From assembly GCF_048403405.1 (NCBI RefSeq), contig NZ_CP183131.1: 64,000 bases of DNA, one strand, 5' to 3'. This stretch comes from Escherichia coli. Its GTDB lineage: Bacteria > Pseudomonadota > Gammaproteobacteria > Enterobacterales > Enterobacteriaceae. Below, one piece after another: positions 57,920-63,262 of the stretch. The stretch's first letter is position 1, and every line of letters begins with the position of its first letter. The position numbers and the translations under genes are program-made. The notes under the pieces were generated by a model that was not told where the DNA came from, did no database searches, and was given only the letters and a program-made list of their open reading frames with translations.

Positions 57920-59536
57920 CGGCCGATTCTGTTGAAAAAGTAGCTTTAGCGGCAGCCTGCCGATCAGGTGTGCCTGCTGTCGAAGTGGCTGCAAGCCACT
58001 TCAAGTTGCCTTCCGGCGTTTCACTGAGCGTCCTTGCTCAGGTTTAAGGGTTAATTTGAGGGTTTCTGCTCGTAGCAGGCATACCTATCCCGTCAGCGGT
58101 GGCCCTTGAGGCAAAAGCTTGGCCATGCGGCGCAGGTTCTGCACCATCGCAGCCAAGGTGAATTCGTCAGTGGCACCCGTTAGGCCACGCAGTCGTAAAC
58201 GGTCGAGTTTCATGATCCGTTTGAGGTGGGCGAAAAGCATCTCCACCTTCTTTCGTTCGCAGCGAGAGACGAGGTACTCCGGTGTCTTGGCGATGCGTCG
58301 AGCCACGTCGCGGGCAGCCTCATGGATGCTGCGGACGATCTTCCGATTCGGCGTGTTGGGGCAGCATTTCGCTTTCAACGGGCAGGTGGCGCAGTCGGTT
58401 TGGCTGGAGCGGTAAATGACGGTTTTGGCCTTAGTTACCCGCGACCTTTGCTGGGTGAAGGCGCGCCATTCACTGCGTAGCGGTTTGCCGGCTGGGCAGC
58501 GATATTCATTGGCGTCCTGACTCCAGTGAAAGTCGTTACTGGAGAGGCTGTCGTCCTTGCGCTCGGTCTTGTCCCACACCGGCACATGCGGTTCGATGTC
58601 CTTTTCTTCGACCATCCAGGCCAGCATCGGGGCGGTGCCATAAGCGGTATCGCCGATAAGGCGTTCCGGTGTGAGATCGAACTGCGCCTCGACACGCTCG
58701 ACCATCGTCCTAGTCGAATCGACTTCGGCGGTACGGTGCGCCGGGGTAGCTTCCACGTCCATGATCACACCGTGCTCAGTGTCGATCAGGTAATTCGTGG
58801 AGTAGGCAAAAAAGGCCGGGCCACCTGGCGCTGCTGTCCAACGGGACTGAGGATCAGTGAGCGAAATTTTCTTGGGAAGAGCCTCAGCCAGCGCCTCTTC
58901 ATCAAGGGCTTCGAGGTACTCGCGCACTGCGCGGCTGCTGAGCTTTGGATCGTTCCAATCGACCTCATCTCCCGCCACCCCACGTTGCCGGCTGGCATCC
59001 GCCTTAATGATGCTGGCGTCGACGGCGAAACCTTCACCCTTGACTAGGCCGGCTGCCATGCAGCGCCGCAGCACCTCATTGAATAACCAGCGGAATAGAT
59101 CGCTGTCACGAAAACGCCCATGGCGATTCTTCGAGAAGGTCGAGTGATTGGGGACTTCGTCTTCCAGACCCAACCGGCAGAACCAGCGATAGGCCAGGTT
59201 CAGGTGCACCTCTTCGCACAATCGCCGCTCGGAACGAATGCCATAGCAGTAGCCGACGACCAGCATGCGCACCATCAACTCCGGGTCAATCGAGGGACGC
59301 CCGATGGGGCTATAGAAATCTGCCAGGTAGGCACGTAGATCACTGAGATCCAAGCACTGGTCGATGCTGCGCAGGAGATGTTGGGCCGGGACGTGATCTT
59401 CCAGATTGAACGAGTAGAACAGGCGCTGCTGTCCTCCCGGTAACTGTCCCATCATGCTGTTCGCCCCCACGCTCGCTGACAAAGCAATTTTGCCAACGGC
59501 ATGGGGAGGCCGCTACTTTTTCAACAGAATCGGCCG
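57920..59536 (-). mobile_element. insertion sequence with 25-bp perfect terminal inverted repeats (IS1182/IS5-superfamily-like; possibly ISCfr1-related, name from memory)
   Basis: CGGCCGATTCTGTTGAAAAAGTAGC at ~57920 and its reverse complement at ~59512; single transposase ORF. Confidence 0.7.
58085..59482 (-). CDS. tnpA: IS transposase (DDE type)
   Basis: 465-aa ORF filling the TIR-bounded element. Confidence 0.7.
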   Translation of the reverse strand: MSASVGANSMMGQLPGGQQRLFYSFNLEDHVPAQHLLRSIDQCLDLSDLRAYLADFYSPIGRPSIDPELMVRMLVVGYCYGIRSERRLCEEVHLNLAYRWFCRLGLEDEVPNHSTFSKNRHGRFRDSDLFRWLFNEVLRRCMAAGLVKGEGFAVDASIIKADASRQRGVAGDEVDWNDPKLSSRAVREYLEALDEEALAEALPKKISLTDPQSRWTAAPGGPAFFAYSTNYLIDTEHGVIMDVEATPAHRTAEVDSTRTMVERVEAQFDLTPERLIGDTAYGTAPMLAWMVEEKDIEPHVPVWDKTERKDDSLSSNDFHWSQDANEYRCPAGKPLRSEWRAFTQQRSRVTKAKTVIYRSSQTDCATCPLKAKCCPNTPNRKIVRSIHEAARDVARRIAKTPEYLVSRCERKKVEMLFAHLKRIMKLDRLRLRGLTGATDEFTLAAMVQNLRRMAKLLPQGPPLTG

Positions 59537-59569: not shown

Positions 59570-60727
59570 TTACCCCACCAAACTCCGGAAACTCGCCCGG
59601 TAGTCCGTCGGCTTGAGATGCACATGTTGGCTGAGGTCGCCGGGTAGCGTGAACAGGCGCGGACCGTCCCGAAACTGGAACACGCGATACAGATGGAATT
59701 GATCGCCCGCCTCCTTGGAGAATTCGAGTTCGTTGTGGCTGACCAAGAAAGACGAGCCTACCCCGCCATTGGTGGTTTTCACCTCGATGAAGCGCTCATG
59801 GGCGTCCTCTTCGAACGACAGGATGTCGAACCCCGCACCGTCTCCCTGGGTGTCGGACACCCAATCCAGCCGCTGAAAAAGCTCTGGGTGGCCGAGCTCG
59901 GTCAGGCGTTGCTGTTCGTAGCCAATCACCCACTGCTCCCCTGCCCGGCCCAGCTTGCGGTTGGCTTCATCGCGAGCGGCATAATCGAACTTTCGCGGTA
60001 GGCGTTGCCGTAGAGATGCCGGGGTACGCACAAGCACTTCACGGGCGGGTGGTTCTACCAAAGCCGCTCGGTAGGTTTTGTCACCCGGAAGTTTTACCTC
60101 CTCCAGGGCATCGACAAGAGCGCCGACCGTCTGCTGATGTTCCAGAACGTAGGCGTGTACGGATTTACGCAGCAGCAGTTGGCTGTTGCCGCGTGGCTTG
60201 TAGCCGTTGATATAGGGCAGGCCCAGGGCATCGAGTACGGCGCTAATGTTCTGGTGCTTGAGCTCGACTGAAGACTTGCTGCGACCGTTCAGCAGTTGGC
60301 GCAGTGCCTGGTTGTGCTCGGACTTGTGGTACGGCTCCCCAGCCGCCTCGGCACGCAGCATGTCGAAATAGTCTTCGACCGTGGCCAGGACCTCTTCTTC
60401 GGACCAGTCTTCGCCGATGCGAATGATGCGAAACCCGAGCCGCGTCAGCGCCGGAACGACGGTCGTCTCGCCACCGGAGAAGCTGTCAGCAGTGAGCGGG
60501 CCCTGCTCGGGAAATTGCTTGCCGAAGGCCACACCGGCGATGGCCTTGGAATCGCAATCGGTGCCGGTCTTCGGATCACGTACCAGGAAGTCGCGGGACT
60601 TGCCGTAGCCGTGGCGCGCCAGGAATTTCGTGCGGCCCAGTTGCACGAACTCATCGATGGCAGCCTGCACGGCGGCGGGGCTTCGAAGCTGGGAGAGTTG
60701 AGACACAGGGTCCTTCCTTACTGTCAT
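59570..60727 (-). CDS. DUF3883-like (NOV C-terminal, restriction-endonuclease-fold) domain protein
   Basis: C-terminal region WVIGYEQQRL...GFDILSFEEDAHERFIEVKTT...FHLYRVFQF resembles DUF3883 (recalled); start set at ATG giving MTVRKDP; GC-rich. Confidence 0.5.
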   Translation of the reverse strand: MTVRKDPVSQLSQLRSPAAVQAAIDEFVQLGRTKFLARHGYGKSRDFLVRDPKTGTDCDSKAIAGVAFGKQFPEQGPLTADSFSGGETTVVPALTRLGFRIIRIGEDWSEEEVLATVEDYFDMLRAEAAGEPYHKSEHNQALRQLLNGRSKSSVELKHQNISAVLDALGLPYINGYKPRGNSQLLLRKSVHAYVLEHQQTVGALVDALEEVKLPGDKTYRAALVEPPAREVLVRTPASLRQRLPRKFDYAARDEANRKLGRAGEQWVIGYEQQRLTELGHPELFQRLDWVSDTQGDGAGFDILSFEEDAHERFIEVKTTNGGVGSSFLVSHNELEFSKEAGDQFHLYRVFQFRDGPRLFTLPGDLSQHVHLKPTDYRASFRSLVG

Positions 60728-61288
60728 GGTGTGCCGGGAACCGCCGAGCCACGAGATTATGAGTAGCCCCTGAACAGAAACGTCACGATAAAAGCCGTGA
60801 ACGCCACCAGGCCCATTAAATCCCTTGCGTATTTGCAGCCCGTGCTGTCCAAACCTGTACCAGGTCCGATCAACACGCTCCAACCATTGAGGTACGAAAA
60901 CACCGCCTGACCGAACAAAAAATGCGTGATAGCCGCCGCAGCCATGACGCCGGAATCGTCAGACAGGCTGTAGCTGTTGACCATTGCCCTGTACGCCTGC
61001 ATCTGAAATGGCTATTGCCCTGATGGGAGCCGGCTTTTCAGCCACCGACACCAGCGATGCCGTCAATATTCTTTACCCGATAACCATGACCGTACAAGCT
61101 AACAAGGCCTGGCAAGCCAGCGGACTTAAAAAGTCTTTTTTTCTACCATCCCACAAAAAAGTTCGTGGTGGAGAAAAGATAAGCTATGCAAGGCTTTAGG
61201 AGACGTGGTTTTTCAGGATGACGAAGAACGATTCGGCGCTAGGTGCAACATAGGTGCATCGCACGAGCGCTAGGAACGGCGAAAAAAG

Positions 61289-61587
61289 GCGGACGTGGCG
61301 AAATCGGTAGACGCAGCAGACTTTAAAATTGGAGTGCCCGCGGGGAAATCCGCGGAGTAGAACCGCTCAAAGTCGGGGAACGCTAACGGGCAATACCCTA
61401 AGCCAATCCCGAGCCAAGCCCCTTCGGGGGAAGGTGTAGAGACTGGACGGGCGGCGCCTAAAGCCTTCGGGCAATGGCGAAGGGACAGTCCAGACCACGA
61501 ACGTCATCAGACGGCGGCGAAAGTCGAGGTGGTACGAAAATCTGCTTCTCTGTGAGAGTACGGGTTCGAGTCCCGTCGTCCGCACCA
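61289..61587 (+). tRNA. tRNA-Leu(UAA) gene interrupted in the anticodon loop by a ~213-nt group I intron
   Basis: 5' exon GCGGACGTGGCGAAATCGGTAGACGCAGCAGACTT; 3' exon AAAATCTGC + long variable arm + T-arm ACGGGTTCGAGTCCCGT + CGTCCGCACCA; intron ends in G and carries group I core-like GTGTAGAGACTGGACGG / ACAGTCCAGACC. Confidence 0.7.
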
Positions 61588-61680
61588 CAAAGCCAAACAT
61601 CCCTGCGATGATCGACCTCTGGGCGTTTGGTCGTGAGCCCGCCACCCTCGCGCTACGCTTTGCGCAGGCGTCGAAGGCGA

Positions 61681-62223
61681 TCAGGTGCGCCCATCGATTC
61701 CGTCGAGCACCATCGCTGCGAGTTCATCGCTGGTGTGTGCACCACTATCGAGAACACGGGTTGTGCATGGAAGCCGTTCCCTTGCGGCCAAGCATCGGGC
61801 GACATTCGCTAATCGCCACTCTCGAATCTCCGCATTTCGATTCGGGTCAGGATGCATGGTCTGGTTCGCGATCCGGTGACGCAATAGGTCCTCGTTGAGC
61901 GTCAGAAAGATGTGCAGCAGCTGATCGTCGATCCGCCTTACCCCGTCGAGTATCTCAGTCAGATAGTCCGGGTGCACGAGCGTCATTGGGATGATGATGT
62001 CCTGCGAGTAATTCCTTCGAATCTCCCTGACCGCCGCGATCGTAAGTCCCCTCCACAAGGGGAGATCCTGATAGTCTCCGCTCGCTGGCATGGGGACCGT
62101 TTCTTTCACCACGAACCCGATTTCCTCGGGGTCAAAGATCAGCGATTTGGAACGCCGATCGCGCAGCCGCTTAGCGAGCGTCGTCTTTCCGGCGCCGAAA
62201 GGTCCGTTGATCCAGATTATCAT
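61681..62223 (-). CDS. tmrB: TmrB-like P-loop ATPase (tunicamycin resistance protein family)
   Basis: N-terminus MIIWINGPFGAGKTTLAKRL; adjacent to aac(3)-II. Confidence 0.8.
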   Translation of the reverse strand: MIIWINGPFGAGKTTLAKRLRDRRSKSLIFDPEEIGFVVKETVPMPASGDYQDLPLWRGLTIAAVREIRRNYSQDIIIPMTLVHPDYLTEILDGVRRIDDQLLHIFLTLNEDLLRHRIANQTMHPDPNRNAEIREWRLANVARCLAARERLPCTTRVLDSGAHTSDELAAMVLDGIDGRT

Positions 62224-62235
62224 TGTCGACGGCCT

Positions 62236-63096
62236 CTAACCTGAAGGCTCGCAAGAGCGCTCGACGGCCTCGTGCGGAGGCACGATCGGAGTGGTTCCGA
62301 AATGCTTCTCAAGATAGGTGACGCCGAACGTCACGATGTCCTGCGCGTCGAACAGGTAGCACTGAGCAAAGCCCACGACACCTTCTCGATGGCGACCGAG
62401 CTTCACGTAAGCATTTGCTATAGTTTCAACCGCATCCGGCTTTCCTTCGATAGCAAAGCAATCGAGAATGCCGTTTGAATCGTAATCCGATGCCGTTTTC
62501 CAGGCGACTTCACCGTCTCTTCCAAGCATCGGCATCTCATACGTCACCCACCGTTTGTTGGGGATATCGGCAACCGCCTCGGCGTAGTGCAATGCGGTAA
62601 CGGAGTTTAGCGGCGCACCCAACAGCAGGGCCTTCCCGCCAAGGCGAACGAACCGCTCGACGGGCGATCCTTCCCCCAAGGCGTGACCGAGTTCGTGAGG
62701 CTCCGTCAGCGTTTCAGCCAGCGGACCAACCGCGACCATCGATGCATCGGGGTGCGCGCTGCGCCGCGCGCCGGGGGCTTGAACCAGAAATTGATTCAGC
62801 AGGCCGAACCCACGGTAAGTCCCGGCTGTTGCGGGATCGAACGGCAGCCAGGTACGGCGGGCTTCGTCATCCAGCCGAGCGCCATTCAGAGTCTCCTCGT
62901 AGGGTGATCGGTCCCACGACGCGTATCCCATCACAGTGCCAGTCGGCCCAACCGCGGAGCGTAACGCGGCAACGACCGTCTCCGCTCCTCCTTCGACCGG
63001 ACCAATCGCTTTAAGTGAGGCATGCACCATCAAGAGGTCACCGGTTTGGACTCCGAGTTTTTGAAGCGCCTCCGTTATTGCCTTCCGCGTATGCAT
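62236..63096 (-). CDS. aac(3)-IId: aminoglycoside 3-N-acetyltransferase AAC(3)-II (IIa/IId/IIe group)
   Basis: Protein recognised from MHTRKAITEALQKLGVQTGDLLMVHASLKAIGPVEGGAETVV...; start set at MHTRK. Confidence 0.9.
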   Translation of the reverse strand: MHTRKAITEALQKLGVQTGDLLMVHASLKAIGPVEGGAETVVAALRSAVGPTGTVMGYASWDRSPYEETLNGARLDDEARRTWLPFDPATAGTYRGFGLLNQFLVQAPGARRSAHPDASMVAVGPLAETLTEPHELGHALGEGSPVERFVRLGGKALLLGAPLNSVTALHYAEAVADIPNKRWVTYEMPMLGRDGEVAWKTASDYDSNGILDCFAIEGKPDAVETIANAYVKLGRHREGVVGFAQCYLFDAQDIVTFGVTYLEKHFGTTPIVPPHEAVERSCEPSG

Positions 63097-63120
63097 CGCG
63101 ATATCTCCTCTAAACTGCAA

Positions 63121-63262
63121 AACACTATACGGGGTCTGACGCTCAGTGGAACGAAAACTCACGTTAAGGGATTTTGGTCATGAGATTATCAAAAAGGATC
63201 TTCACCTAGATCCTTTTAAATTAAAAATGAAGTTTTAAATCAATCTAAAGTATATATGAGTA
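63121..63262 (-). mobile_element. second Tn2/Tn3 end fragment (IRR + ~100 bp), direct repeat of 56256..56396, cut by IS26
   Basis: Same IR and adjacent sequence as downstream of blaTEM; diverges into IS26 IRL. Confidence 0.8.

Follow-up and report, generated by a model that had tools for sequence, protein, structure and literature searches.

Small, GC-rich group I introns of about 200-230 nt interrupt several proteobacterial tRNA genes, including tRNA-Ile(CAU) of Azoarcus, tRNA-Arg(CCU) of Agrobacterium and tRNA-Leu(UAA) of a gamma-proteobacterium; they carry GAAA tetraloops on P2/P9 and receptor motifs resembling CCUAA(G)...UAUGG. The 64-kb stretch of Escherichia coli DNA analysed here (contig NZ_CP183131.1, hereafter the window) contains an intron-bearing gene of this kind at 61289-61587 on the plus strand, next to the resistance genes tmrB and aac(3)-II. 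It is very probably an intact tRNA-Leu(UAA) gene of alphaproteobacterial origin, with a 213-nt group I intron without an open reading frame (ORF) between U34 and A35, which travels with a piece of an insertion junction as a passenger in the resistance module. The match to an intron-split tRNA far exceeds chance, and the RNA gene is a previously unannotated member of an already known intron family.

The bacterial tRNA-Leu(UAA) introns have been assigned to subgroup IC3 (10.1101/2020.01.27.920355). With their Leu.3Ug type, known from cyanobacteria and plastids, the window intron shares the host gene, the insertion point (CUU/...G/AAAA, with slashes at the splice sites), the combination of U-1 and a terminal G, the lack of an ORF and a similar size (10.1101/2020.01.27.920355), as well as the core sequence GAAGGTG(T/C)AGAGACTNGACGG. 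Unlike that type, the window copy is GC-rich, belongs to a proteobacterial branch, is found on enterobacterial plasmids within a resistance module and has no link to the translation apparatus of its host. Its likeness to the proteobacterial tRNA introns named above lies in the GAAA loops of P2 and P9b and in the P8 motif CCUAAAG...CAAUGG, whereas those introns occupy other tRNAs or lineages and are chromosomal in their native hosts.

Exon 1 (61289-61323, plus strand; GCGGACGTGGCGAAATCGGTAGACGCAGCAGACTT) is the same in 12 close relatives. It reads GCGGACG-UG-GCG-AAAUCGGUAGA-CGC-A-GCAGA-CUU and covers the 5' strand of the acceptor stem, the D arm, the 5' strand of the anticodon stem and C32, U33 and U34, the last of which (61323) is U-1 of the 5' splice site. 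Exon 2 (61537-61587, plus strand; AAAATCTGC...GGGTTCGAGTCCCGTCGTCCGCACCA) consists of AAAA-UCUGC, the variable arm, ACGGG-UUCGAGU-CCCGU, CGUCCGC, A and CCA, and thus covers A35, A36, A37 and A38, the 3' strand of the anticodon stem, the variable arm, the T arm, the 3' strand of the acceptor stem, A73 and the encoded CCA. For the joined exons ARAGORN called a tRNA-Leu(taa) of 86 nt with all four stems. The molecule has a 7-bp acceptor stem (GCGGACG/CGTCCGC), a TTCGAGT T-loop and the features of a class II tRNA-Leu, namely the cloverleaf, the long variable arm, the anticodon UAA and the discriminator A73, followed by CCA. The same call was obtained for all 61 homologous joined genes, and the homologues show 98.7-100% pairing, together with covariation, in the acceptor, D, anticodon and T stems. 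The initial annotation, made from the sequence alone, had described a complete class II tRNA-Leu(UAA) split after U34 by about 213 nt ending in G; this is exact, since the intron occupies 61324-61536 and its 3'-terminal base is G61536.

Standard searches pass over the gene. ARAGORN run without introns found zero tRNAs across the 64-kb window, Rfam at gathering scores gave zero matches at the locus, PGAP reports nothing at the gene and RefSeq records show no feature there. With introns allowed, ARAGORN miscalls the gene as tRNA-Stop(tta) with a 221-nt intron, and it also misplaces the intron in four close relatives, calling tRNA-Stop or tRNA-Phe. The intron boundaries were therefore set via the U-1/terminal-G rule and a rescan of the joined exons.

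The intron helices P1-P9 were drawn by hand, and all 82 proposed pairs, the tRNA stems included, are standard in the window sequence. P1 (61320-24/61331-35; all helices are on the plus strand) contains the wobble pair U61323·G61332, and P2 (61338-44/61349-55) ends in a GAAA loop. The core helices P3-P8, with the P3/P7 pseudoknot, are all present: P3 at 61363-68/61449-54, P4 at 61373-78/61407-12, P5 at 61382-90/61396-403, P6 at 61413-14/61434-35, P6a with a UUCG loop at 61419-22/61427-30, P7 at 61443-48/61488-93, P8 at 61455-58/61476-79 and P8a at 61463-65/61470-72. They are followed by P9 (61494-98/61529-33), P9a (61502-05/61510-13) and P9b (61515-18/61523-26), the last with a GAAA loop. Receptor-like CCUAA.../...AUGG motifs lie in P5 and P8. 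A homing endonuclease ORF is absent, the 213-nt intron being fully occupied by P1-P9.

A scan for the core GAAGGTGTAGAGACTNGACGG in one genome per species returned at least 120 loci. Among the first 120 core matches listed, 60 were tRNA-Leu(UAA) genes with an intron, and 59 of these 60 share the split site CUU/...G/AAAA with the window intron. The view of the initial annotation that intron-containing tRNAs are rare in bacteria needs softening in this light, as such introns are not very rare outside Cyanobacteria. In an alignment of 59 homologues from the scan, 92.7% of the cells were paired, against 34-43% for slid controls in which the 3' partners were moved by 1-3 columns. Changes on both sides were seen at 57 of the 82 pairs, and none of 500 shuffles reached the observed values. 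Compensatory changes occur in P3, P4, P6a and P8 with 95-100% pairing, P7 is nearly invariant and the U·G wobble of P1 is found in 59/59 homologues. The intron-only covariance model R1 is based on 31 chromosomal relatives and does not include the window; searched against the window, it gave a single match (61318-61536) over the full model length, with 204.5 bits and an E-value of 3e-60. Together, the pairing, covariation and model matches assign the intron to the known bacterial tRNA-Leu(UAA) group I family, and the group I core noticed earlier in the insert is borne out.

Some results weigh against this assignment. In a local Rfam search, Intron_gpI (RF00028) matched 61314-61506 as a full-length model match with an E-value of 8.6e-8, but its 36.8 bits fall below the curated gathering score of 50. 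The chromosomal tRNA introns of named Alpha- and Betaproteobacteria obtain 32.6-55.6 bits with the same model and only one of six reaches 50, so that the sub-threshold score is to be attributed to the model and not to the window sequence; the Rfam group I seed contains zero bacterial introns (10.1101/2020.01.27.920355). For the intron alone, the minimum-free-energy z-score was -1.44, with most hairpins recovered, which is weak evidence; thermodynamic folding cannot draw the P3/P7 pseudoknot and is uninformative by itself. There is also a single window-specific flaw, a G-to-A change opening the terminal pair of the P5 hairpin.

The pattern of substitutions was followed in a near clade, found by searching with an ORF that overlaps the gene (see below) and by a metagenome scan with the P2-P3 string. 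Its members are 94-98% identical to the window gene, and 12 full-length members, with identities of 94-96%, were compared with it. The exons (86 positions) show 0-1 differences from the window, the paired intron positions (122) show 1-5, mostly compensatory changes from U-A to C-G in P9a, and the unpaired intron positions (91) show 6-14. This distribution reflects purifying selection on the RNA structure up to the lineage of the window.

Two other accounts of the region were considered. The empty results of the default tRNA and Rfam scans might suggest that the resemblance is fortuitous, or that a tRNA pseudogene in decay carries an unrelated insert. The probability of this account is vanishingly small: it is refuted by the R1 match, which fits the insert, and by the covariation, and is contradicted also by the Rfam match, by the valid tRNA formed by the joined exons and by the substitution pattern. 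The second account is that the region encodes a protein, since the minus strand has a 92-codon ORF (61367-61645) that overlies exon 2 and the 3' portion of the intron. A 'hypothetical protein' is annotated over it in many GenBank plasmid records, and database proteins match it. These 'homologues', however, vary from 63 to 157 aa and all overlie copies of the same RNA gene, the substitutions avoid base-paired RNA positions and include compensatory pairs, and the ORF is absent from the PGAP annotation of E. coli RefSeq records. The ORF is spurious, because its database homologues are other copies of the RNA gene and its variation follows the pattern of an RNA; a 92-aa protein is thus highly improbable. 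Protein databases consequently hold clusters of false products of 63-157 aa.

By the established mechanism of the family, the precursor would fold into P1-P9, and free guanosine bound in P7 would attack the phosphate after U34, which would be held in the U·G wobble with the guide GGAGU. The terminal G61536 would then occupy the guanosine site, and the 3'-OH of U34 would attack the 3' splice site to yield the 86-nt tRNA with its encoded CCA. On this analogy we infer that the RNA splices and is charged.

The native context of the gene is its more unusual aspect, more so than the RNA itself. In the relatives, about 135 nt upstream of the intron-bearing gene, lies the 5' half of a second, different tRNA-Leu(UAA) gene. 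This orphan half varies among contigs and ends exactly at CTTAAAA, after which the conserved AGTCTTTTTTCTACC follows. Complete orphan 5' halves were found at eleven of the loci compared (L140, L141, L143-L146, L148, L151, L155, L156 and L157, in the numbering of this analysis), and left junctions are present in at least 9 contigs besides L155 and in two Paracoccus kondratievae genomes. At L155, the single contig of sufficient length to include both ends, the matching 3' half (AAAATCCCTT...CGCCCGCACCA, with CTT before it) lies about 11.5 kb beyond the intron-bearing gene. When the orphan 5' and 3' halves of this locus are joined, they make up a valid tRNA-Leu(UAA) without an intron, and CTTAAAA stands at each end of the insert. 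About 11.9 kb have thus entered the resident gene at its anticodon loop and are bordered on either side by a copy of the 7-nt loop. The L155 insert opens with the intron-bearing gene, and its cargo comprises a regulator, a large autotransporter adhesin and IalB; the cargo in Paracoccus starts with copper-resistance genes.

Islands and prophages with tyrosine recombinases integrate in tRNA genes by a crossover in the 7-nt anticodon loop, and the classical tRNA-targeting elements restore their target by carrying only its 3' part. The inserts of the relatives are similar in that they split tRNA-Leu(UAA) at the anticodon loop, have the 7-nt loop at both ends and carry short direct repeats by the junction. 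They differ in that the resident gene is left unrepaired and a whole, intron-split copy arrives with the element, together with its own upstream region. By analogy with the known tRNA-targeting elements, and given the 7-nt repeat, a site-specific recombinase with its crossover in the anticodon loop would have produced the insertions, and the intron-bearing gene is most likely a replacement for the destroyed resident gene, placed at the end of the inserted element.

In the window, 61110-61131 on the plus strand is a degenerate relic of a further tRNA-Leu(UAA) gene, recognised by alignment with the relatives; it corresponds to the 5' half and ends in the 7-nt anticodon loop CTTAAAA (61125-61131), the point at which, in the relatives, the orphan half of the resident gene gives way to the incoming DNA. 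The window also retains the junction GGACTTAAAA/AGTCTTTTTTT at 61122-61142. The initial annotation had proposed that the gene may mark a former tRNA-targeted island junction. This is partly right, as the relatives show a split resident tRNA and the window keeps the left junction, but the intron-bearing gene is not the target; it is the copy brought in at the end of the insert.

The same layout, with unrelated spacers containing short direct repeats, was found for tRNA-Leu at L002 and L120 and for tRNA(CAU) of Betaproteobacteria at L059 and L092. At the last two loci an orphan 5' half ending in CTCATAA precedes the complete intron-bearing tRNA(CAU) copy by 160-200 nt, and both spacers contain AAATTGCTTACACACCGCTTACACAC, together with repeats of CTTACACAC, a motif similar to the arm sites of recombinases.

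A further reading may be proposed, tentatively and with less than even confidence. The intron-bearing tRNA-Leu(UAA) could be a self-supplied spare part of integrative elements that hit the anticodon loop of the host gene without repairing it, its intron splitting the element's own target loop. Since the intron splits the 7-nt target loop, the copy could not be attacked or recombined by the recombinase of the element, and it would still give a working tRNA after splicing. Such protection of the replacement copy by an intron within the target site is speculative.

Several observations count against the reading of the locus as a piece of an insertion junction. A second copy of the tRNA 3' end, which would represent the second junction, was not found in the 64-kb window, which holds only the left junction and the degenerate 5'-half remnant. 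L155 is the only relative showing both insertion ends. No integrase or other recombinase was found among the Pfam and NCBIfam matches of the cargo genes at L155, L145, L146, L156 and L157, the far ends of most insertions lying outside the sample. Finally, no tRNA lies beside tmrB in any of the closest tmrB/aac(3) loci examined.

The resistance module is a mosaic of separately derived parts. Its middle part (61118-61587), the tRNA locus, has its own, alphaproteobacterial relatives. The methionyl-tRNA synthetase encoded at L143 is identical to that of P. kondratievae, of which two genomes carry the gene, the proteins of L155 cluster with those of Hyphomicrobiales metagenome-assembled genomes (MAGs), and a protein of one further contig clusters with a Reyranella MAG protein. 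Thirteen metagenome contigs are 84-98% identical to the tRNA locus, and none of the 13 carries tmrB, aac(3) or DUF3883. The homology with every relative stops at 61587-61590 and mostly starts 135-170 nt upstream of the gene. These alignments place the origin of the gene outside the enterobacteria, its nearest relatives being alphaproteobacteria of soil or water. No homologues of 60726-61117 or 61588-61682 were found, no locus with the intron core carried tmrB, aac(3) or DUF3883 among the 120 matches listed, and when plasmids were searched with the Paracoccus version, the resistance module was the only match.

The minus strand to the left of this piece carries a DUF3883 gene (59571-60705) and, at 57920-59536, an element of the IS1182 family, known in the literature as ISCfr1, whose inverted repeats are 25 nt long. 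This left part (57921 to 60705/60725) is 84-90% identical at the nucleotide level to a Stutzerimonas kunmingensis contig, on which the DUF3883 gene follows a 1,729-aa helicase gene, the same insertion sequence occupies the same place and no tRNA is present. The DUF3883 part therefore has a separate, Pseudomonas/Stutzerimonas-like origin, not an alphaproteobacterial one. In the Stutzerimonas/Pseudomonas-like loci L122-L127 the DUF3883 gene (ScoMcrA_N and NOV_C) directly follows a DEAD/UvrD-type helicase gene of 1,714-1,729 aa, a pair reminiscent of defence islands, and at L125 an OLD-family ATPase and an integrase lie near it. The module keeps the DUF3883 gene without the helicase, and the homology ends about 20 nt upstream of the DUF3883 start. 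The IS1182-family element stands directly downstream of the DUF3883 gene both in the module and at L122 (9152-10768), the S. kunmingensis contig; the transposases are 98.5% identical, whereas the DUF3883 genes are only about 84% identical at the nucleotide level. The element may have a preferred target site there, or the junction between ISCfr1 and DUF3883 may be of common descent.

To the right, also on the minus strand, the annotation of an identical copy gives a tmrB-like ATPase gene at 61681-62223 and aac(3)-II at 62236-63096. The two genes lie on the side of the tRNA where the relatives carry the cargo of the inserted element. The spacer between the 3' end of the tRNA and the stop codon of tmrB is 95 nt long (61588-61682), and at least 61671-61682 of it is contiguous with tmrB in another version of the module. 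The right part (61683-63130) is 84-86% identical at the nucleotide level to chromosomal loci L128-L130, L137 and L131-L133. Their flanks (an ECF sigma factor, EF-hand proteins and BA14K) are 87% identical to Sinorhizobium meliloti, in which tmrB is present at the locus and aac(3) is absent. These similarities point to a Sinorhizobium/Ensifer-like origin of the resistance pair. A literature search found no link of tmrB to Sinorhizobium as its origin, the sole paper containing both words being a review of efflux and secretion judged unrelated from its title. Mobilised aac(3)-II/tmrB genes about 96% identical to the window at the nucleotide level occur with other boundaries at L134/L135 and at L136, both without the tRNA; one has lost the 3' end of tmrB to an IS91/ISCR-type element, and in the other an rve-family insertion sequence lies about 10 bp past tmrB. 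Either several separate captures of the pair or repeated trimming of the module could account for this.

The initial annotation had suggested that the tRNA may mark the chromosomal donor of the resistance segment. In its favour, the RNA gene and aac(3)-II/tmrB both have alphaproteobacterial relatives; the tRNA alone, though, does not name the donor, because the closest tmrB loci are without an adjacent tRNA. A related explanation is that the intron-bearing tRNA-Leu was a normal gene beside tmrB on the donor chromosome, with no integrative element involved. It would fit the alphaproteobacterial relatives of tRNA, tmrB and aac(3)-II alike, the lack of homologues of 60726-61117 and 61588-61682, as would be expected of fast-evolving spacers, and the fact that most intron-bearing tRNA-Leu genes among the matches listed have no orphan half nearby. 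We consider it rather unlikely. The window keeps the junction and the spacer which in the relatives always follow an orphan resident 5' half, and the cassette with its non-coding spacer is 84-90% identical across different alphaproteobacterial groups in unrelated flanks, which argues for horizontal movement. Under the preferred reading, the 470-bp piece comprising junction, spacer and gene (61118-61587) would have been carried along beside tmrB and aac(3)-II, and between ISCfr1 and IS26 it is probably a passenger.

The piece itself contains several candidate signals, all on the plus strand. A hairpin followed by a T-run (GGACTT-AAA-AAGTCT and T7; 61122-61142), conserved in the relatives, looks like a weak terminator closing the orphan 5' half. 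The conserved cassette begins with the right arm of this hairpin, AGTCT, and the T-run; the terminator scan missed the hairpin because that scan needs at least three G-C pairs. The upstream element TTCGTG-N16-CTATGC (61162-61189) is conserved at L140, L141, L143 and L155 and is a possible promoter of the tRNA gene, although it fails the sigma-70 consensus scan. The best-conserved part of the spacer holds two direct copies of TAGGTGCA (61240-61247 and 61251-61258), both of which are altered alike at L149 (CAGATGCA and TAGATGCA). They could be arm-type sites of a recombinase or a promoter-proximal element. The repeat pattern matches two viral contigs, and a BLAST of the first of these against the module gave no match.

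The module corresponds to aacC2-tmrB-orf192-orf228-orf1182-ISCfr1, with matching gene order and insertion sequences. The published module is the same as that of the window, but the plasmid paper on it deals with ORFs alone, and the word tRNA is nowhere in its text (PMC7096625). A literature search found no paper in which tmrB or the module is mentioned together with 'group I intron' or 'tRNA-Leu'. The segment is at least 99% identical in 1,310 of 1,353 matching PLSDB plasmids, whose hosts belong to Escherichia, Klebsiella, Salmonella, Acinetobacter and other genera. It is present in 635 of 5,426 complete E. coli genomes (12%), in 588 plasmid and 82 chromosomal places.

This recent spread may be the sole reason for the intact state of the gene, which would then be a silent relic, neither transcribed nor spliced in enterobacteria and without function. 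The chances of this are about even. The scan found no sigma-70 consensus promoter and no intrinsic terminator around the gene, which speaks against its expression in E. coli; about 1,300 plasmid copies are at least 99% identical, so there was no time for decay or selection; the mobilised versions at L134 and L136 do without the tRNA; and E. coli has its own tRNA-Leu(UAA). On the other side, the conserved element TTCGTG-N16-CTATGC moves with the gene, read-through from neighbouring elements is possible and group I splicing in principle requires no host-specific protein.

The intron core also occurs in at least 120 IMG/VR viral contigs (L158-L277). Among the matches listed, about 50 are tRNA-Leu(UAA) genes with an intron, and the calls for others include Arg(TCT), Thr, Lys and Gln; some of these intron-bearing tRNAs sit among other tRNA genes. 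The best viral copies are about 70% identical to the window over most of their length, and none has an orphan half among the matches listed. At L080, a MAG labelled Klebsiella pneumoniae, the core lies inside a tRNA(CAT) gene with a 198-nt intron, unrelated to the resistance module; the contig may have been mis-binned, or enterobacterial assemblies may contain a second kind of intron-bearing tRNA.

An unannotated, structured RNA gene with a ribozyme thus lies in one of the commonest aminoglycoside-resistance modules. Standard pipelines skip the gene or cover it with a false protein, and it can serve as a marker for the history of the module. If the spare-part reading is true, aac(3)-II/tmrB would have entered clinical plasmids as cargo beside the end of such an element, and, given the tRNA(CAU) layout at L059 and L092, the reading would explain in general why bacterial tRNA genes retain small group I introns without an ORF. 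If integrative elements do carry intron-split replacement tRNAs, bacterial tRNA introns would have a directly testable selective role.

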